DNA from: Escherichia phage S164
Sequence record: ON239131
Strand: one strand, 5' to 3'
DNA length: 30,272 bases
A program made the translations under genes and the position numbers. Each line of letters starts with the position of its first letter. Positions within the stretch are counted from its first letter, which is position 1. Positions 1,224-30,272 of the stretch are shown here, one piece after another. A model generated the notes under the pieces. It saw nothing but the letters and a program-made list of their open reading frames with translations. It was not told the origin of the DNA and ran no database searches.

Positions 1224-2995
1224 CAGTAAAACTCCAGAATGGTGGATGTCAGCGGAGTGCTGATACCGGCGGTGAGTGGCTCATTTAACAGGGCGTGCAT
1301 GGTCGCCCAGGCGAGGTCGGCGTGGCTGGCTTCCTCGCTGCGGCTGGCCTCATAGGTGGCGCTGCGTCCGCTGCTGGTCATGGTCTTGCGGATAGCCATA
1401 AACGAGCTGGTGATGTCGGTGGCGCTGACGTCATATTCCAGACAGCCACGGCGGATAACGTCTTTTGCCTTGAGCACCATTGCGGTTTTCATTTCCGGCG
1501 TGTAGCGGATATCGCGCGCGGCGGGATAGAACGAGCGCACGAGCTGGAACACACCGACACCGAGGCCGGTGGCATCAATCCCGATGTATTCAACGTTATA
1601 TTTTTCGGTGAGTTTGCGGATGGATTCTGCCTGGGTGGCAAAGTCCATGCCTTTCCACTGGTGACGCTCAAGGATCCTGAATTTGCCACCGGCCACCACC
1701 GGCGGTGCCAGCACCACGCATCCGGCGCTGTCGCCACGGTGTGACGGGTCGTAACCAATCCATACCGGGCGGGAGCCGAACGGATTTGCGGCAAACGGTG
1801 CATAGTCTTCCCATTCTTCCAGCGTATCGACCATGCAGCGTTGCAGCTCCTCGAACGGGAACACCGACGCTTTGTCGTCAACAAATTCACACATGAACAG
1901 GTTTTTAAAATCGTCGGCGCTGTTTTCACGTTTGAGCTGCTCAATGTCGAACAGCGTGCAGCCGCCTTTCAGCGCGTCCTCAATGGTGACAATCTGCCGC
2001 CACTGGCCGTCCGCACAGAGAAGCCCACCGGCAAGGGCGTTATGACTGACGTCGATTTCCACGCGTTCGGCGGCGCTGGCGCGTCCCCGGTTGAACAGTT
2101 CACCCGACCAGAACGGGTAGGCGTCGTGCGCCAGCGTGGACGGGGTGGAGAAATAGGTCGAGCGCAGGTGACTCTGTGAGGCCATACCTGATGCCACCTT
2201 ACGCAGTACCTGAAAATTCGGGATCCAGAAAATCTCGTCGACGTACAGGTCGCCGTTATGGCTCTGTGCGGTGTTGGAGTTGGTGCCGAGAAAAATCAGT
2301 TTTGCACCGTTATTGCCCAGGACAATCGGGTCACCGGTCAGGTCAACGTCAACCAGCCGGGCAAAGGCAATGATGTATTCGCGGAACACATACGCCTGCG
2401 TTTTACTGGCCGACAGAAAAATCTGGTTATGGCCGGTTTTCAGGGCGCGCAGCAGCGCCTCGCGGGAAAAATAAAACGTCGCGCCAATCTGGCGGGATTT
2501 CAGGATATCGCGGATGCGGTGCTCAAGCCCGGCGCGATACCAGTGCAACTGATAGTCGAAAGACTGCTCAAAGAAAATCTGCTCCAGCTTTTCGATGGCC
2601 TCGTCACTGAAAAAATTCTTTTTCGGTTTGCGACGCCCGCCTTTGTTGCGGTTAGCGACGTTCGGATTAAGGTCTGCCTCGTTGCCGGTCTGACTGTAAC
2701 GGTTGACCCGTGCCAGTCGTTCAATCTGGCGTCCGAGCAGGTCAATTTCCTTGAAGTCACCGCCGGTTTTCTGCGGTTTGATGATGAGCTGGGTCAGCCT
2801 CGCTTCCAGACTCATTTCGACACGGCTGATGGGGGCAACGCTGTCCCAGCCGTCGCGCTGTTTCCAGCTCTGCACCGTCGGGCGTTTCATCTGCAACATG
2901 GCGGCAATCTGCGGCACGGAAAATCCCTGCCAGTACAGCAGCGCCGCCTGACGACGCGGGTCGTGTAAAAGAGTGGTGTCTGTGGTGATGGTCAT
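1223..2995 (-). CDS. P: Terminase large (ATPase) subunit, P2 gpP
   Basis: Starting at the MTITTDTT ATG at 2995 gives 590 aa, equal to P2 P, with a GAGG ribosome-binding site upstream. The 600-aa version in the ORF track is an N-terminal over-extension. Confidence 0.88.
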   Translation of the reverse strand: MTITTDTTLLHDPRRQAALLYWQGFSVPQIAAMLQMKRPTVQSWKQRDGWDSVAPISRVEMSLEARLTQLIIKPQKTGGDFKEIDLLGRQIERLARVNRYSQTGNEADLNPNVANRNKGGRRKPKKNFFSDEAIEKLEQIFFEQSFDYQLHWYRAGLEHRIRDILKSRQIGATFYFSREALLRALKTGHNQIFLSASKTQAYVFREYIIAFARLVDVDLTGDPIVLGNNGAKLIFLGTNSNTAQSHNGDLYVDEIFWIPNFQVLRKVASGMASQSHLRSTYFSTPSTLAHDAYPFWSGELFNRGRASAAERVEIDVSHNALAGGLLCADGQWRQIVTIEDALKGGCTLFDIEQLKRENSADDFKNLFMCEFVDDKASVFPFEELQRCMVDTLEEWEDYAPFAANPFGSRPVWIGYDPSHRGDSAGCVVLAPPVVAGGKFRILERHQWKGMDFATQAESIRKLTEKYNVEYIGIDATGLGVGVFQLVRSFYPAARDIRYTPEMKTAMVLKAKDVIRRGCLEYDVSATDITSSFMAIRKTMTSSGRSATYEASRSEEASHADLAWATMHALLNEPLTAGISTPLTSTILEFY

Positions 2996-3059
2996 GAATA
3001 CCTCGCCGTGATGAATACACGGCAAGGCTACTGAGTCGCGCCCCGCGATTCGCTAAGGT

Positions 3060-6001: not shown

Positions 6002-6511
6002 ATGATGACGCTGATTATTCCGCGAAAGGAGGCTCCCGTGTCCGGTGAGGGTACGGTGGTCATCCCGCAACCGGCAGGCGACGAGCCGGTGATTAAAAAC
6101 ACGTTCTTTTTTCCCGATATCGACCCGAAGCGCGTCCGGGAACGTATGCGCCTTGAGCAGACCGTCGCCCCCGCCCGTCTGCGTGAGGCCATCAAGTCAG
6201 GCATGGCTGAAACAAATGCGGAGCTGTACGAGTACCGCGAACAGAAAATTGCCGCCGGTTTTACGCGTCTGGCGGACGTTCCGGCGGACGACATCGACGG
6301 TGAAAGTATCAAAGTTTTTTACTACGAGCGCGCCGTGTGTGCGATGGCGACCGCGTCGCTTTATGAGCGTTATCGCGGCGTGGATGCCAGTGCGAAAGGC
6401 GACAAGAAGGCTGACAGCATTGACAGCACCATTGATGAACTGTGGCGGGATATGCGCTGGGCGGTGGCGCGTATCCAGGACAAGCCGCGCTGCATCGTGA
6501 GTCAAATCTGA
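6002..6511 (+). CDS. L: Head completion protein, P2 gpL
   Basis: Starting at MMTLIIPRKE, which has an AGAGGTGG ribosome-binding site, gives 169 aa, equal to P2 L. The longer ORF from 5942 is an over-extension. Confidence 0.85.
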   Translation: MMTLIIPRKEAPVSGEGTVVIPQPAGDEPVIKNTFFFPDIDPKRVRERMRLEQTVAPARLREAIKSGMAETNAELYEYREQKIAAGFTRLADVPADDIDGESIKVFYYERAVCAMATASLYERYRGVDASAKGDKKADSIDSTIDELWRDMRWAVARIQDKPRCIVSQI

Positions 6512-6714
6512 TGAAGACCTTTGCGCTACAGGGCGACACGCTCGACGCCATTTGTGTCCGGTATTACGGGCGCACTGAGGGCGTGGTTGAGACCGTGCTC
6601 GCCGCAAATCCGGGACTGGCTGAACTGGGTGCGGTGCTGCCACACGGCACCGCCGTCGAACTGCCCGACGTTCAGACCGCGCCCGTGGCTGAAACTGTCA
6701 ATCTGTGGGAGTAA
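6511..6714 (+). CDS. X: Tail protein X (LysM-like), P2 gpX
   Basis: Starting at the ATG at 6511, which overlaps the L stop, gives 67 aa, equal to P2 X. Confidence 0.85.
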   Translation: MKTFALQGDTLDAICVRYYGRTEGVVETVLAANPGLAELGAVLPHGTAVELPDVQTAPVAETVNLWE

Positions 6715-6999: not shown

Positions 7000-7496
7000 T
7001 GCCGGTAATTAACACGCATCAGAATATCGCCGCCTTTCTCGACATGCTGGCGGTATCCGAAGGGACGGCAAATCATCCGCTGACGAAAAACCGTGGCTAT
7101 GACGTGATAGTCACCGGACTGGACGGGAAGCCGGAAATTTTCACCGACTACAGTGACCACCCGTTCGCGCATGGCCGACCGGCGAAGGTGTTTAACCGTC
7201 GCGGTGAAAAATCCACGGCCTCCGGTCGCTATCAGCAGCTTTACCTGTTCTGGCCGCATTACCGCAAACAGCTTGCCCTGCCGGATTTCAGTCCGTTGTC
7301 ACAGGACAGACTCGCCATTCAGTTGATCCGCGAACGCGGTGCGCTGGATGACATCCGGGCGGGACGCATTGAGCGCGCCATTTCACGCTGTCGCAATATC
7401 TGGGCGTCCCTGCCGGGTGCCGGTTACGGTCAGCGTGAGCATTCACTGGAAAAACTGGTCACCGTCTGGCGTACCGCTGGCGGCGTACCGGCTTAA
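6999..7496 (+). CDS. K: Endolysin (lysozyme), P2 gpK
   Basis: 165 aa, equal to P2 K. Its start overlaps the Y stop. Confidence 0.9.
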   Translation: MPVINTHQNIAAFLDMLAVSEGTANHPLTKNRGYDVIVTGLDGKPEIFTDYSDHPFAHGRPAKVFNRRGEKSTASGRYQQLYLFWPHYRKQLALPDFSPLSQDRLAIQLIRERGALDDIRAGRIERAISRCRNIWASLPGAGYGQREHSLEKLVTVWRTAGGVPA

Positions 7497-25219: not shown

Positions 25220-25491
25220 GTATTCGTATTGAAATTGGCGAACGTTATGTCGTTACCAGTGACAGCTTTCAGTTTATTCTCCACGAGAAAAAGAGAGCTG
25301 AAAGCGGTAAAAACGCCGGTCAGGAATGGCTGGCGGTGGTTGGTTATTACCCGAAATTAAGCCAGCTTGTTTCCGGCCTGATGCATCACGATATTCTGAC
25401 CGGAAGCGCAAAGTCTTTTGCTGATTTAAACGCGCAGGTTGAGCAACTCAGCAAGCGTTGTTCAGAGGCTTTTGGCTCATATGGCCGTTAA
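25216..25491 (+). CDS. Hypothetical early protein (P2 orf83 position)
   Basis: 91-aa ORF overlapping the A start. Confidence 0.55.
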   Translation: MSIRIEIGERYVVTSDSFQFILHEKKRAESGKNAGQEWLAVVGYYPKLSQLVSGLMHHDILTGSAKSFADLNAQVEQLSKRCSEAFGSYGR

Positions 25492-27766
25492 AGCCTCCGG
25501 GCGTTTTGTCCCTCCGTCAGCATTTGCCGCAGGCACCGGTGAGACGTTTACCGGTGCTTATGCATGGAACGCGCCACGCGAGGCCGTCGGGCGCGAAAGA
25601 CCCCTTACACGTGACGAGATGCGTCAGGTGCAAGGTGTTTTATCCACGATTAATCGCCTGCCTTACTTTTTGCGCTCGCTGTTTACTTCACGCTATGACT
25701 ACATCCGGCGCAATAAAAGCCCGGTGCACGGGTTTTATTTCCTCACATCCACTTTTCAGCGCCGTTTATGGCCGCGTATTGAGCGCGTGAATCAGCGCCA
25801 TGAAATGAACACCGACGCGTCGTTGCTGTTTCTGGCAGAGCGTGACCATTATGCGCGTCTGCCGGGGATGAATGACAAGGAGCTGAAAAAGTTTGCCGCC
25901 CGTATCTCATCGCAGCTTTTCATGATGTATGAGGAACTCTGCGATGCATGGGTTGATGCACATGGCGAGAAAGAATCGCTGTTTACAGATGAGGCGCAGG
26001 CGCATCTGTATGGTCATGTTGCTGGCGCTGCACGTGCTTTCAATATTTCCCCTCTCTACTGGAAAAAATACCGTAAAGGACAGATGACCACGAGGCAGGC
26101 ATATTCTGCCATTGCCCGTCTGTTTAACGATGAGTGGTGGACTCATCAGCTTAAAGGCCAGCGTATGCGCTGGCATGAGGCGTTACTGATTGCTGTCGGG
26201 GAGGTCAATAAAGACCGTTCTCCTTATGCCAGTAAACATGCCATTCGTGATGTGCGTGCACGCCGCCAGGCAAATCTGGAATTTCTTAAATCGTGTGACC
26301 TCGAAAACAGGGAAACCGGCGAGCGCATCGATCTTATCAGTAAGGTGATGGGCAGTATTTCTAATCCTGAAATTCGCCGGATGGAGCTGATGAACACCAT
26401 CGCCGGTATTGAGCGTTACGCCGCCGCAGAGGGTGATGTGGGGATGTTTATCACTCTGACCGCGCCGTCAAAGTATCACCCGACACGTCAGGTCGGAAAA
26501 GGCGAAAGTAAAACCGTCCAGCTAAATCACGGCTGGAATGATGAGGCATTTAATCCAAAGGATGCGCAGCGTTATCTCTGCCGCATCTGGAGCCTGATGC
26601 GCACGGCATTCAAGGATAATGATTTACAGGTCTACGGTTTGCGAGTCGTCGAGCCACACCACGACGGAACGCCGCACTGGCATATGATGCTTTTTTGTAA
26701 TCCACGCCAGCGTAACCAGATTATCGAAATCATGCGTCGCTATGCGCTCAAAGAGGATGGTGACGAAAGAGGAGCCGCGCGAAACCGTTTTCAGGCAAAA
26801 CACCTTAACCGGGGCGGTGCTGCGGGATATATCGCGAAATACATCTCAAAAAACATCGATGGCTATGCACTGGATGGTCAGCTCGATAACGATACCGGCA
26901 GGCCGCTGAAAGACACTGCCGCGGCTGTTACCGCATGGGCGTCAACGTGGCGCATTCCGCAATTTAAAACGGTTGGCCTGCCGACAATGGGGGCTTACCG
27001 TGAACTACGCAAATTGCCTCGCGGCGTCAGCATTGCTGATGAGTTTGACGAACGCGTCGAGGCTGCACGCGCTGCCGCAGACAGTGGTGATTTTGCGTTG
27101 TATATCAGCGCGCAGGGTGGGGCAAATGTTCCGCGCGATTGTCAGACTGTCAGGGTTGCCCGTAGTCCGTCGGATGAAGTTAACGAGTACGAGGAAGAAG
27201 TCGAGAGAGTGGTCGGCATTTACGCGCCGCATCTCGGCGCGCGTCATATTCATATCACCAGAACGACGGACTGGCGCATTGTTCCGAAAGTGCCGGTCGT
27301 TGAGCCTTTGACTTTAAAAAGCGGCATCGCCGCGCCTCGGAGTCCTGTCAATAACTGTGGAAAGCTCACCGGTGGTGATACTTCGTTACCGGCTCCCACA
27401 CCTTCTGAGCACGCCGCAGCAGTGCTAAATCTGGTTGATGACGGTGTTATCGAATGGAATGACCCGGAGGTTGTGAGGACGCTCAGGGGTGCATTAAAAC
27501 ACGGCCTGAAAACACCAAATCGTCAGCAAAGAAACGGAAGCCCGTTAAAACCACATGAAATAGCACCGTCGGCCAGACTGACCCGGTCGGAACGATTGCA
27601 AATTACCCGTATCCGCGTTGACCTCGCTCAGAACGGTATCAGGCCGCAACGATGGGAGCTTGAGGCGCTGGCGCGTGGCGCGACAGTAAATTATGACGGG
27701 AAAAAATTCACGTATCCGGTCGCTGATGAGTGGTCGGGATTCTCAACAGTAATGGAGTGGACATGA
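25481..27766 (+). CDS. A: Rolling-circle replication initiator endonuclease, P2 gpA
   Basis: Starting at MAVKASGRFVPPSAFAAGTG gives 761 aa, equal to P2 A. It contains the HUH-type histidine motif GTPHWHMMLF and tyrosine-containing GAAGYIAKYISKN. The ORF-track start at 25439 adds 14 aa. Confidence 0.9.
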   Translation: MAVKASGRFVPPSAFAAGTGETFTGAYAWNAPREAVGRERPLTRDEMRQVQGVLSTINRLPYFLRSLFTSRYDYIRRNKSPVHGFYFLTSTFQRRLWPRIERVNQRHEMNTDASLLFLAERDHYARLPGMNDKELKKFAARISSQLFMMYEELCDAWVDAHGEKESLFTDEAQAHLYGHVAGAARAFNISPLYWKKYRKGQMTTRQAYSAIARLFNDEWWTHQLKGQRMRWHEALLIAVGEVNKDRSPYASKHAIRDVRARRQANLEFLKSCDLENRETGERIDLISKVMGSISNPEIRRMELMNTIAGIERYAAAEGDVGMFITLTAPSKYHPTRQVGKGESKTVQLNHGWNDEAFNPKDAQRYLCRIWSLMRTAFKDNDLQVYGLRVVEPHHDGTPHWHMMLFCNPRQRNQIIEIMRRYALKEDGDERGAARNRFQAKHLNRGGAAGYIAKYISKNIDGYALDGQLDNDTGRPLKDTAAAVTAWASTWRIPQFKTVGLPTMGAYRELRKLPRGVSIADEFDERVEAARAAADSGDFALYISAQGGANVPRDCQTVRVARSPSDEVNEYEEEVERVVGIYAPHLGARHIHITRTTDWRIVPKVPVVEPLTLKSGIAAPRSPVNNCGKLTGGDTSLPAPTPSEHAAAVLNLVDDGVIEWNDPEVVRTLRGALKHGLKTPNRQQRNGSPLKPHEIAPSARLTRSERLQITRIRVDLAQNGIRPQRWELEALARGATVNYDGKKFTYPVADEWSGFSTVMEWT

Positions 27767-28218
27767 TGGCAAAAATTCACGAGGTAAAGCTGCACGCAAA
27801 ATATTTCGACCTTGTGCTGGAAGGAAAGAAACGCGCAGAGTTTCGGAAAAATGACCGTAATTATGAGCGCGGGGACACGTTGATTTTGCATGAATGGGGG
27901 CAGGGTGTGTATACGGGGCGAAAGGTTGAAGCCCGGATAACAGATGTTACTGACCTGTCAGACTGGCTGGAAGATTATGTCTTGCTAAGTATTGAGCTGC
28001 TTAATACAGGCGCATATGAGATTGTGAACAGGAAAGAACTTAGTGAGCGTGGTCTGTTATTCAGAATTAATCATGAAATTATGCATAAGCTCGGCCTTGC
28101 TGTTATGTATGAACCAGAGACGGGAATGTCTGGCGGGGCAATGGTTGCCACGGATGGAGCATGGAACTATTCAGATGAACAGATGGAGCGTGCACAGCAA
28201 AACGGGTGGCTTGGATAA
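27763..28218 (+). CDS. DUF3850/ASCH-like (PUA-fold) protein with an extra C-terminal domain; first gene of the A-to-cos accessory locus
   Basis: Its start, ATGATGG, overlaps the A stop. The N-terminus KIHEVKLHAKYFDLVLEGKKRAEFRKNDRNYERGDTLILHEW fits the DUF3850/ASCH signature pattern (KxHELKxxxxYFxxVxxGxKxFEIRKNDRxFxxGDxLxLxEW). 151 aa. Confidence 0.6.
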   Translation: MMAKIHEVKLHAKYFDLVLEGKKRAEFRKNDRNYERGDTLILHEWGQGVYTGRKVEARITDVTDLSDWLEDYVLLSIELLNTGAYEIVNRKELSERGLLFRINHEIMHKLGLAVMYEPETGMSGGAMVATDGAWNYSDEQMERAQQNGWLG

Positions 28219-28424
28219 TGCACAGAATACCAGGCGAGATACCGCACCATAAAACTAAAAATATCAAGCTGATGGCTATTGTTCAGCGTTTACAGCGGAT
28301 TATGGTCAACGAAAATCTGACGCCCGATGAGCTAGTCGGGTGTGCCGAAATAGTCCGGGATAATTACGGGCGGTTTAACTATATCGGTCAGTCCAGAGTT
28401 GCGCCACCACCACGCAGACGATAG
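28218..28424 (+). CDS. Small hypothetical protein, translationally coupled to the DUF3850 gene
   Basis: The ATG at 28218 overlaps the upstream TAA. 68 aa, with a basic PPPRRR C-terminus. The ORF-track start at 28206 is a GTG. Confidence 0.45.
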   Translation: MHRIPGEIPHHKTKNIKLMAIVQRLQRIMVNENLTPDELVGCAEIVRDNYGRFNYIGQSRVAPPPRRR

Positions 28425-28427
28425 ATA

Positions 28428-28470
28428 ACGCCGCCAGTCGTGAAACTTGTTTTCAGGGCTGGCGGCGTTG
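28428..28470 (+). terminator. Stem-loop with an 11-bp perfect inverted repeat (AACGCCGCCAG...CTGGCGGCGTT) closing the A operon
   Basis: Seen directly. The 21-nt loop contains a T-rich stretch. It is part of the first copy of the 61-bp conserved element. Confidence 0.4.
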
Positions 28471-28495
28471 AACAACGAGTGAAGCGAGGCGTTAG
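28435..28495 (+). repeat. Copy A of a ~61-bp conserved intergenic element
   Basis: CAGTCGTGAAACTTGTTTTCAGGGCTGGCGGCGTTGAACAACGAGTGAAGCGAGGCGTTAG matches the copy at 29407-29467 at about 75% identity. Each copy begins 10-20 bp after a stop codon. Confidence 0.7.
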
Positions 28496-28653
28496 TTGAC
28501 ATTCATATTTTTACTGCGTTGGTGCTGTTTTTTGACGGTTGAAAGGAGTTATCTCGGAGAGCTAAAGCTAACAACTTACAAATATTCAAAAGTAAGCTTC
28601 CTGTTGCTAACATAAGGTCGATTTTTTATGTGGATGATGCAAAAAGGATAGCT

Positions 28654-29385
28654 ATGGATACTATAATCGCTTTTCTATCACTCGCTTTTTTTGTTGCTTT
28701 TTTCATCGGGTTAATCAAGCCATCACTGGTGCGAATGCCAAGCCGCAAACGTGCAAGTGCGGTTTATCTCGGAGGAGGTTTTGTATTGAGCATAATTGGT
28801 TCAATACTCTATCCAACAGAAAAAAGCCAGCCAGTTGCTAAAACTGAAACATCAACCGTTGTAGAACACCAAGTCCAAAAAACATTCGAATATGGTGAAA
28901 AAACACTCAAGGAATATCGGAGCGAGCCAAAGAAAACTCGACACGATATTGTGAATAGTTACATTGACTTTAAGAAAGTTCCAGTCACCGCATCAGATGC
29001 ATTTTATGCCTGCATGAGTGAGTATACATTTACCAAAGATGATGAGTTGAAACTCGGTGATGTTCTTGGGTGGTGCTTTAATGATTATGAAAATGACCCG
29101 AGTTCACTAAATAATAAAATCAATCTTGATACATTTCAGAGTAATTTTAGTGGTTGGGATGGTTCTTATCGTCCATTGGAAAAACTAATTAAAGATAATA
29201 TGAACGATGATTCATCTTATAAACATGTATCAACGGTATATCATTTAGTTTTGAATAAAGACCCGCACGCCATTGTGAAAACGACGTTTCGCGGCACTAA
29301 TGCTTATGGTGGCATGGTCAAACAGACTGTAGCAGCGCGAGTTGACGTGCGAACGGGTGAGATCGATTCAATACTCGACAATTAA
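28654..29385 (+). CDS. Hypothetical membrane protein (two N-terminal transmembrane helices, C-terminal soluble domain of about 180 aa): accessory cargo gene 1
   Basis: AT-rich ORF. MDTIIAFLSLAFFVAFFIGLI and AVYLGGGFVLSIIGSILY are hydrophobic helices separated by a positively charged loop. An AAAGGA ribosome-binding site stands 6 nt before ATG 28654; a GTG at 28630 is an alternative start. I recognise no family. Confidence 0.6.
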   Translation: MDTIIAFLSLAFFVAFFIGLIKPSLVRMPSRKRASAVYLGGGFVLSIIGSILYPTEKSQPVAKTETSTVVEHQVQKTFEYGEKTLKEYRSEPKKTRHDIVNSYIDFKKVPVTASDAFYACMSEYTFTKDDELKLGDVLGWCFNDYENDPSSLNNKINLDTFQSNFSGWDGSYRPLEKLIKDNMNDDSSYKHVSTVYHLVLNKDPHAIVKTTFRGTNAYGGMVKQTVAARVDVRTGEIDSILDN

Positions 29386-29406
29386 ATAATATAGTGACAG
29401 CTCCGT

Positions 29407-29467
29407 CAGTGATGAAACTTGCTTTTAGTCTTGGCGGGGTTGAGCAATGAGTCTTGCAAGGTGTTAG
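29407..29467 (+). repeat. Copy B of the ~61-bp conserved intergenic element
   Basis: CAGTGATGAAACTTGCTTTTAGTCTTGGCGGGGTTGAGCAATGAGTCTTGCAAGGTGTTAG. See copy A. Confidence 0.7.
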
Positions 29468-29468
29468 C

Positions 29469-30125
29469 ATGCGTAGAATGGAAGCTGCTTGGACGTGGGG
29501 TATTCATATGAATTTAAAAATTTTCGGCATAATTGTCCTTTCTGCTTTGATGTTCGTTTTAGGTTTTTTTCTCGGTGGTTTTAATTGGGAATGGGCTGAT
29601 AAGAATTATGCAGGTGAGGTGGCGTTGTGGAGTATGTTAGGAGGGTGGTTATCCGCAATTGCAACTCTGTTTGCCGTGTTGGTTTCATTATATATGGCGT
29701 ATCAAGCTACTCAGAATGAGATTGAAAAAATCAGGGTTACTCATGGAGTAAGTATGAGTGTCACTCATGACAATGAGTTAAGTTGTAATCTCATTATTCA
29801 GAACTTGAGAAATATGAAAGTGAATATTACTGGTGTTTTTTTGTCTCTAGGTAAATCATCAGGTAAGTACTCTTTGGATAAAGTAATTGACAATTGTAAT
29901 ATAACGCTTTCATATAAAGGTGAAACAGAAAAGGTACAATTTGTAATCCATTCTGGGTATATTTGGTGGTCAATGTATAAATTATTCGATATGGATAAGA
30001 ACATAGGTTTTGAAAAGGGTAAGATCTTTATAACAACCAACCTCAATACATATGAATTTGATTTGCCAAAAGAATATTTAAGAGCTTTTGAGAAAGCTTA
30101 TTCGGAGTATCAGACAAAAAAATAA
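29469..30125 (+). CDS. Hypothetical membrane protein (two N-terminal transmembrane helices plus a C-terminal domain): accessory cargo gene 2
   Basis: AT-rich ORF. IFGIIVLSALMFVLGFFLGGF and LGGWLSAIATLFAVLVSLYMAY are transmembrane helices. ATG 29469 has an AAGGTG ribosome-binding site; ATGs at 29454 and 29508 are alternatives. No recognisable similarity to cargo gene 1 or to any family I know. Confidence 0.55.
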   Translation: MRRMEAAWTWGIHMNLKIFGIIVLSALMFVLGFFLGGFNWEWADKNYAGEVALWSMLGGWLSAIATLFAVLVSLYMAYQATQNEIEKIRVTHGVSMSVTHDNELSCNLIIQNLRNMKVNITGVFLSLGKSSGKYSLDKVIDNCNITLSYKGETEKVQFVIHSGYIWWSMYKLFDMDKNIGFEKGKIFITTNLNTYEFDLPKEYLRAFEKAYSEYQTKK

Positions 30126-30132
30126 TGAGCTG

Positions 30133-30160
30133 CATGCAAAAGGTGCATGTTTTTGCATGT
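30133..30160 (+). terminator. Hairpin (CATGCAAAA...TTTTGCATG) after cargo gene 2
   Basis: A 9-bp inverted repeat directly after the stop codon. The trailing T tract is weak. Confidence 0.35.
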
Positions 30161-30254
30161 GCTAAGTTCACTGGTTTTGTGTATATCGCTTCAGATCTAG
30201 CGTGGTTCCGGGGAGGGCATGCAACTGCATTAAAACCGCTCCATGAAGCGGGCG

Positions 30255-30272
30255 GGCGAGGCGGGGAAAGCA
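30255..30272. other. cos: cos site, right copy (GGCGAGGCGGGGAAAGCA)
   Basis: Identical to bases 1-18, so the window is one genome unit plus the cohesive-end duplication. Confidence 0.8.

Follow-up and report, generated by a model that had tools for sequence, protein, structure and literature searches.

The gpA-to-cos locus and its repeated element

The window analyzed here is a stretch of 30,272 nucleotides (nt) from Escherichia phage S164 (sequence record ON239131). It corresponds to the right part of a P2-type (Peduovirus) prophage genome and includes the gpA-to-cos variable locus ("TO region"), which is a known defense hotspot (PMC9122126). This locus contains two direct copies, E-A and E-B, of a 72-nt element composed of a 19-bp hairpin and a conserved 26-nt tail, the last bases of which are GTTAG. 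The element is conserved between phages and has a single orientation and sharp edges, its hairpin covaries and folds better on one strand, and it joins a wide range of otherwise unrelated flanks. The features of the locus are the following, with coordinates in the window.

25439-27766: gpA, which holds the P2 origin nick motif (about 27332-27351, identical to P2)
27763-28218: orf91, with DUF3850/ASCH and DUF7415 domains
28218-28424, plus strand: orf92-like gene (68 amino acids, PHROG 11386), stop codon TAG at 28422-28424
28424-28495, plus strand: E-A, in one repeat family with E-B; nhmmer match at 28423-28497, E = 3e-20
28427-28469, plus strand: E-A hairpin, an inverted repeat with arms 28427-28445 and 28451-28469 and loop CTTGT
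28470-28495, plus strand: E-A tail (GAACAACGAG...GCGAGGCGTTAG), conserved and mostly unpaired
28654-29385, plus strand: cargo 1, a 243-residue homolog of 186 Orf97 (PHROG 3403), stop codon TAA at 29383-29385
29396-29467, plus strand: E-B, a divergent intercistronic copy that separates cargo 1 from cargo 2; nhmmer match at 29397-29469, E = 3.7e-15
29399-29441, plus strand: E-B hairpin, in the same register as that of E-A, largely via G·U pairs
29456-29471, plus strand: 3′ end of E-B, with a Shine-Dalgarno-like AAGG(TG); the cargo 2 ATG is 2 nt on (spacing read from the sequence)
29469-30125, plus strand: cargo 2, a 218-residue membrane-type protein of unassigned function (PHROG 16957)
30132-30150, plus strand: terminator-like hairpin from the terminator scan
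30132-30272, plus strand: right border of the hotspot, comprising this hairpin and a cos-proximal conserved region that ends in the cos overhang GGCGAGGCGGGGAAAGCA (30255-30272); compared with 186, SEN1 and the P2 cosR annotation

A repeat search of a 2.6-kb region returned a single 72-nt direct-repeat family, with 74% ungapped identity between 28424-28495 and 29396-29467; the second-longest direct repeat in that region measured 29 nt. Comparison of the two copies by BLASTN gave 75.4% identity over 65 nt (E = 3e-8). An earlier note on this DNA had described a repeat of about 61 bp, about 75% identical between its copies, upstream of both cargo genes. Both measurements agree with that identity, and the repetition is far beyond chance; the sequence is not of low complexity. 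The right-hand ends proposed in the note, 28495 and 29467, coincide with the GTTAG end of the element. In contrast, the proposed starts, 28435 and 29407, cut the 5′ arm of the hairpin, and the true starts are at about 28424/28427 and 29396/29399. Similarly, the stem of 11 bp given for E-A was too short, its arms being 19 nt long and 89% complementary around a 5-nt loop. A distance of 10 to 20 bp between stop codon and repeat was correct for E-B, whose hairpin base lies 13 nt after the TAA codon of cargo 1, but not for E-A, whose hairpin base follows the TAG codon of the orf92-like gene by only 2 nt.

Conservation behind the orf91/orf92 pair ends with E-A, which forms the left border of the variable cargo region, between the phage backbone (52-58% G+C) and the cargo (30-42% G+C; both cargo 1 and cargo 2 are AT-rich).

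Structure and strand of the element

The structure analysis was based on an alignment of 97 distinct variants of the element. The hairpin of E-A has a predicted RNA minimum free energy (MFE) of −36.1 kcal/mol (z = −5.5), the plus strand folding better than the minus strand. RNAalifold independently predicted the long hairpin, with compensatory double changes in 10 of 12 predicted pairs. In the 19-bp helix as we wrote it by hand, which comprises 13 core pairs, 94% of the cells are paired, 9 of the 13 pairs show changes on both sides, and one position displays six pair types. Pairing over the helix amounted to 91.8% of cells and dropped to 36-48% when the partners were slid along. All five summary measures of the helix exceeded those of 500 of 500 shuffles, a result that is supportive rather than formal, as the aligned rows are related and partly redundant and the shuffle statistics overstate their independence.

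G·U pairs outnumber A·C pairs by about 8:1 in the alignment (219 versus 27), and the plus strand folds better in 96 of the 97 variants (mean MFE of −31.5 versus −22.1 kcal/mol). Therefore, it is the sense strand of the neighboring genes that folds. The hairpin of E-B had been considered decayed in the earlier note, which is borne out for its stability but not for its pairing: the register is kept in plus-strand RNA through G·U pairs (−22.4 kcal/mol, versus −9.5 kcal/mol for the minus strand), although the fold is no better than that of shuffled sequences (z = −0.74). Calculated with DNA parameters, E-B is marginal or nearly unfolded (−6 kcal/mol).

The element is also more conserved than the synonymous sites of the adjacent gene. 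Between loci whose orf92 coding sequences are 70-80% identical, identity was 81% for the element, 73% for the coding sequence and 60% for the third positions of identical codons. With its 19 bp, including G·U pairs and one mismatch, the helix has a size compatible with that of a predicted RNase III substrate (about two turns of double-stranded RNA).

Other folds were considered. A pseudoknot between loop and tail (CUYGY/GCRAG) is possible, with 95% of the cells paired, but nearly all of its changes are one-sided, C or U opposite G. A three-way fold, which is the MFE structure of the 186 element, combines an end-to-end helix (element positions 3-8 with 67-72) with a second hairpin (42-47 with 56-62) and shows no covariation. 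The end-to-end helix is 90% paired, again without covariation, and the second hairpin only 78%; the 5′ end of the element pairs with 42-47 instead, covariation was observed at 6-44, and RNAalifold favors the simple long hairpin.

Comparison with known signals gave no assignment. Rfam searches yielded no match at E ≤ 10 for the window region and none at E ≤ 5 for the loci of 186, SEN1 and Wphi. The element has the GC-rich stem-loop of an intrinsic terminator but no U-run 3′ of the stem, and the promoter scan predicted no sigma-70 site overlapping or following either copy. The top of the hairpin reads CTG-N11-CAG, one base off the CTG-N10-CAG spacing needed for a LexA box. The canonical Chi octamer GCTGGTGG is found in none of the 97 variants, the 3′ arm of which reads GCTGGCGG, GCTGACGG or similar; at 28457-28464, GCTGGCGG is one mismatch off Chi and oriented for RecBCD entry from the cos end. 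The tail 8-mer GCGAGGCG (28484-28491) is common to the tail and the cos overhang (30255-30272). It does not follow the cos variant of 186, which argues against a pseudo-cos. Neither the Chi-like arm nor the cos-like 8-mer is conserved as a functional site would need to be. A recoding signal for read-through or frameshifting is not consistent with the distance between stop codon and element, which ranges from −19 to +4 with a variable frame, nor with the further in-frame stop codon present two codons on in 186. Finally, a search of the 30-kb window for an antisense or second-site partner revealed no extra copy or complement of the tail motifs beyond chance.

Distribution, flanking genes and junctions

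Homologs of the element are present in P2-, Wphi-, 186-, PSP3- and SEN1-type phages of Escherichia, Salmonella, Klebsiella, Yersinia, Erwinia and other hosts. We found it in 77 phage records (including Wphi, P2-type isolates, 186, PSP3, SEN1, and Yersinia, Klebsiella and Erwinia phages) and in 514 of 5,426 complete E. coli genomes, in one or two places each; it is therefore not confined to this window, and it flanks other hotspot cargo in many phages. The places inspected were all beside gpA homologs or in a P2-like context, and the inspected plasmid matches were P2-like prophages integrated in plasmids. In a pattern scan of one genome per species, Enterobacterales-type prophages were the only carriers, counting the contig L134 described below. 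A profile search of 216 fetched loci (numbered below with the prefix L) gave 207 full copies, and the first 123 loci searched gave 149. The element always lies between gpA and cos, in the orientation of gpA, with one or two copies per phage, and it persists where gpA is only 32-39% identical to that of the window. Two direct copies were present in 26 of the 123 loci, separated by about 400 bp with an orf92-like gene between them or by about 975 bp with an Orf97-like gene, as in this window.

An unbiased sample was assembled from 80 loci chosen only by the similarity of their gpA (98-99% identical to this gpA). The element was present in 41 of them (37 single and 4 double) and absent from 39, and all 45 copies were on the gpA strand. 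In these loci the first copy occupies a fixed place, about 657 nt past the end of gpA and directly after orf92. No element was found in P2 itself. E-A is 93-96% identical to the copy at the same position in Wphi, P24A7b and P22H4, and the E-B variant also occurs in L090, L116, L139 and L141.

Decayed copies were detected after orf92 in L147 (about 7084-7180) and L160 (about 7126-7220), with the hairpin top deleted in both; in L152 (about 6437-6520, also after orf92) the hairpin is retained and the tail has diverged. The prophages found in plasmids include L124, in the large conjugative IncC plasmid NZ_CP104682.1 (1-7691) with a reverse-transcriptase cargo, and L125, in a large plasmid typed as non-mobilizable (NZ_CP051374.1) with a Fic-family cargo. 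A contig labeled "Chryseobacterium sp. 18061" (L134, CACSKA010000005.1; 49% G+C) carries the element and a 186-like gpA homolog (37% identity) and is probably a contamination or a mislabeled assembly. Several complete chromosomes or plasmids have the element at identical low coordinates, namely 2944-3015 in NZ_CP135722.1, NZ_OZ121091.1 and NZ_CP059130.1, and 2638-2691 in NZ_CP048604.1, NZ_CP104682.1 and others. According to its annotation, NZ_CP104682.1 begins at the P2-type gpA gene, possibly because "fix-start" tools mistook gpA for a replicon initiator during assembly.

The genes next to the element differ from phage to phage. Upstream of 139 of 148 copies, an open reading frame (ORF) of 40 codons or more terminates no farther than about 20 nt from the element, and in 88 copies only 2-4 nt separate its stop codon from the hairpin base. 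These 139 upstream ORFs form six unrelated clusters, in which orf92-like genes are the commonest (70 copies), followed by Orf97-like and DinI genes (31 each) and three small clusters. The earlier note had tied the element to the genes downstream of it, as holds for both cargo genes here; across phages, however, the constant partner is the stop codon of the upstream gene.

Both edges of the element are sharp. Column conservation is 85-100% through GTTAG and 30-46% from the next base, and the sequences after GTTAG are unrelated between E-A and E-B and between phages. The left edge is just as sharp where it adjoins the promoter region of a minus-strand Fic gene. When 200 nt on each side were clustered for 147 distinct contexts, we obtained 13 upstream and 32 downstream flank clusters, in 50 combinations. 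The orf92-like genes are joined to 20 downstream families, the Orf97-like genes to 11 and DinI to 7, and the flank that runs from the terminator to cos was found behind four different upstream families. An identical 69-nt element is shared by up to 3 upstream and 3 downstream families. The suggestion of a recombination scar left by modular insertion is thus supported as to the junction, given the number of flank combinations and the identical copies with unrelated flanks. The word "scar" does not fit an element with covarying pairs, strand-specific G·U pairs and more conservation than the neighboring synonymous sites.

In phage 186, the element stands between orf97 and the annotated p95 terminator t95b, behind which comes cos and no further gene; it is therefore located upstream of a mapped terminator. 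Cargo 1 and 186 Orf97 share 78% amino acid identity. E-B is thus homologous to the element of 186 and was inherited together with its upstream gene. Upstream of orf97, the homology between 186 and the window (L001 2180-2260 versus 28496-28653) is limited to the last 75-80 nt before the ATG, where the partial terminator t95a of 186 is located. Roughly the first 80 nt past E-A, starting with TTGACATTCATATTTTT, have no counterpart in 186 and recur behind the element in many P2-type phages.

According to the 186 record, expression of Orf97 from a plasmid blocks 186 infection. On the basis of this annotation and of its homology, cargo 1, which has a hydrophobic segment at its N terminus, is likely a superinfection-exclusion gene. 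Cargo 2 has no Pfam match and is unrelated to cargo 1, as the earlier note had said (BLASTP E = 0.15). Its start at 29469 is consistent with the alignment to PHROG 16957, which begins at residue 1, and with the start called by PGAP. The scan found no promoter-like site between the two cargo genes, so that the two are probably cotranscribed across E-B. Cargo 2 appears to use as its Shine-Dalgarno sequence the conserved GAGG/AAGG of the tail, located 7 nt upstream of its ATG; the same arrangement of tail and ATG is found in another phage with the canonical variant of the element. As cargo 2 has no promoter-like site of its own and its putative ribosome-binding site is in the tail of E-B, the element would have to permit read-through. 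On the other side of E-A, the start of orf91 overlaps the end of gpA, and its ASCH domain is a putative RNA-binding fold. The gene is located two genes upstream of a conserved RNA-like element; 186-type phages have the element without orf91.

Possible roles of the element

Our preferred explanation, to which we assign about an even chance, is that the element represents a portable, transcribed 3′-end or intercistronic RNA hairpin module that is at the same time the junction of cassette exchange. It would be transcribed on the gene-sense strand directly behind the stop codon, and the RNA would fold into the 19-bp hairpin followed by the conserved single-stranded tail. The hairpin may serve as a stable 3′ barrier or a processing site that determines where the message of the upstream cistron ends and how stable it is, and that shields this cistron from any cargo that happens to follow. 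Read-through would still be possible, with the tail of E-B providing the ribosome-binding site of cargo 2. Cargo modules would be exchanged between related phages by homologous recombination in the element, the simplest mechanism because the element is the sole homology among unrelated cassettes. The two copies in the window would then correspond to element-terminated units in series, orf92-E and orf97-like-E, followed by cargo 2.

Alleles that lack the element provide a natural comparison. In the distinct flanks inspected, the stop codon of orf97-like genes without it is directly followed by an ordinary hairpin in the position of the element, in some cases with a T-run (loci L140, L143, L146, L148, L162, L163, L168, L179, L203 and L098). 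This natural "allelic" replacement by ordinary terminators suggests that the element fills the role of a 3′-end hairpin.

Several observations weigh against this explanation. The element is missing from 39 of the 80 close relatives, from P2 and from 13 of the 17 orf97-like genes in the unbiased set, and any function that it has must therefore be dispensable. About 6% of the copies have no co-oriented upstream ORF, and in L125 the element lies between two minus-strand genes. The fold of E-B is unexceptional, and the redundancy of the aligned variants tempers the shuffle statistics. A plain barrier hairpin does not explain why the loop and the unpaired tail are so strongly conserved. We infer that RNA is the functional form and that it affects the mRNA from three lines of argument, namely strand asymmetry, position and the 186 annotation. 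Crossovers inside the element are likewise proposed on the basis of the junctions. No four-gamete chimeras of head and tail were found, and column-wise association of element variants with their flanks, head with upstream and tail with downstream families, followed only a weak gradient.

A close variant of the preferred model is that the element acts as a non-canonical or factor-dependent terminator or attenuator, which would end the early/SOS operon, at least partly, before the cargo. We consider this unlikely. A GC-rich 19-bp hairpin right after stop codons, which takes the place of canonical terminators in element-free alleles and marks the border between the backbone and the AT-rich cargo, would suit such a role, but the hairpin is followed by GGGGTTGAACAAC with no U-tract, and the terminator scan makes no call. 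Furthermore, the p95 transcript of 186 is annotated to end at t95b, downstream of the element, and expression of cargo 2 would need read-through of E-B. The earlier idea of a terminator-promoter junction carried with each cassette can be upheld for a 3′-end hairpin module that travels with the upstream gene, not for the U-tract or the promoter. The idea that the downstream cargo genes share a promoter or operator in the element has in our view next to nothing to recommend it beyond the position of the element upstream of both cargo genes in the window and a TTGACA immediately after E-A (28496-28501). The scan gave no promoter-like site within or behind either copy, the sequences beyond GTTAG have nothing in common, 186 has a terminator and cos rather than a gene behind its element, and the ATG of cargo 2, 2 nt past E-B, leaves no room for a promoter and leader; the spacing at the hairpin top speaks against a LexA operator. 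A single-stranded DNA replication signal, for instance one that primes lagging-strand synthesis on the displaced strand in the manner of sso or primosome-assembly hairpins, appears very improbable as well. It would account for the strand specificity and fixed orientation of the hairpin and for its position about 1.1 kb away from the gpA nick site, but half of the close relatives and P2 replicate normally without the element, which is thus dispensable; moreover, it is linked to stop codons and duplicated with cassettes, and E-B, which depends on G·U pairs, is very weak as DNA.

It is slightly less probable than a terminator that the element is a functionless hitchhiking 3′ flank, for instance the remnant of an old terminator, whose copies are similar only through copying by recombination between phages. 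Its absence from close relatives and from P2, the decayed copies of L147, L160 and L152, the thermodynamically unexceptional E-B, and the identical copies with unrelated flanks, which suggest recent exchange, can all be explained in this manner. However, the compensatory double changes, which affect 9 of the 13 pairs of the core and reach six pair types at one position, and the excess of G·U over A·C pairs would be hard to reach without selection on the plus-strand helix. In addition, the element is more conserved than adjacent synonymous sites and persists beside strongly diverged gpA genes. A shade below this explanation we place a structure-specific recombination site acting as DNA, like the attC sites of integrons. 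The hairpin would form on single-stranded plus-strand DNA, for instance during gpA rolling-circle replication, and a recombinase or an HUH nuclease would cut and join at its edges, resulting in precise insertion and excision of cassettes. Like attC, the element is an imperfect palindrome 3′ of each cassette ORF, in a single copy and one orientation (two-copy arrays being found in 26 of 123 loci), with a good fold on one strand only. Its cassette junctions are razor-sharp, with AAC on the left, also beside a non-ORF flank, and GTTAG on the right, and its ends form an inverted pair, AACGCC...GGCGTT; gpA is itself a rolling-circle nuclease of the HUH type whose nick site is about 1.1 kb upstream of the element. 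In contrast, no integron integrase, attI or associated recombinase gene is found among the neighbors (gpA, orf91, orf92, DinI, Tum, cargo). On reading the sequences, we could not match the 7-mer attC cores RYYYAAC and GTTRRRY: the left end of the element is (C/G/T)AAAC or AGAAC and its right end GTTAG(C/T)N, of which only AAC and GTT fit. The helix spans only the 5′ two-thirds of the element, its end-to-end pairing lacks covariation, and its likeness to the gpA nick sequence does not go beyond AG/CCTG at a single type of junction. RNA is favored by the excess of G·U pairs and by the poor fold of E-B as DNA, and the sequence of the element is highly conserved, whereas attC sites conserve structure and not sequence. 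More doubtful still is a small-integron-like hotspot, in which the hairpin on the presumed displaced strand would be cut and rejoined at AAC and GTTAG by gpA or a host enzyme; if true, gene-plus-element units would be captured, stacked and excised as cassettes.

Among known systems, the extragenic REP/BIME palindromes of enterobacteria, which stabilize upstream mRNA and act as recombination junctions, resemble the element as GC-rich imperfect palindromes located after stop codons or between cistrons and transcribed within the mRNA. REPs are about 35-40 nt long, with a GTAG head, and are mobilized by RAYT transposases in hundreds of chromosomal copies, whereas the element has 72 nt and a different sequence and is found at one phage locus with one or two copies per genome. 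The sib/RNase III retroregulation hairpin of lambda is similarly a long hairpin in the 3′ untranslated region of a phage accessory gene, placed to control message decay. It has no sequence relation to the element, which differs from it in being repeated and located at module junctions, and for which RNase III cleavage is a candidate process. Lambdoid morons and boundary sequences share with it hairpin-ended accessory units and short conserved sequences at mosaic joints, but each moron normally has its own canonical intrinsic terminator, whereas here a single sequence is common to many unrelated units.

Among published concepts, the PeSL (promoter-early stem-loop) cassette of T4-type phages comes closest (Arbiol et al. 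2010; Comeau et al. 2014). PeSLs are short conserved intergenic stem-loop motifs in direct orientation, found in a hyperplastic region of nonessential genes (PMC2839356, PMC4122927), and serve as exchange points between otherwise unrelated sequences, as is probably the case for the element with its 13 by 32 flank clusters and sharp edges. The formation of minicircles has been shown for PeSLs (PMC2839356, PMC4122927). They differ by a strong sigma-70 promoter, an effective terminator and many copies per genome; the element has neither promoter consensus nor U-tract, is present in one or two copies at a single hotspot of temperate P2/186-type phages, and possesses a long conserved unpaired tail.

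A search of 8 million papers for sequence strings of the element gave no match, although an earlier mention in the first papers on the locus is possible. The first descriptions of the variable region are reportedly those of Nilsson et al. in 2004 (Mol Biol Evol 21:1) and Odegrip et al. in 2006. P2-like prophages constitute a major reservoir of anti-phage defense genes, the cargo of which, according to recent surveys, is swapped extremely fast by an unknown mechanism (PMC9122126, PMC13586616). Rousset et al. (2022) speculate on the cos ends as a mechanism of swapping (PMC9122126), and a 2026 study in Nucleic Acids Research reports no known mobilization function and does not contain the words hairpin, terminator or conserved sequence (PMC13586616). 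Neither of these two recent hotspot studies mentions such an element.

The element marks the exact joints of unrelated defense-type cargo genes and is thus a candidate handle on cargo swapping: a structured 72-nt sequence at the left border of the hotspot and between stacked cassettes represents a concrete, testable candidate for the crossover point. It also offers a practical reference point for setting the limits of cargo in short contigs, and is a candidate new RNA motif. For the phages that carry it, it may be a means of plugging cargo into phage transcription without disturbing the upstream genes.

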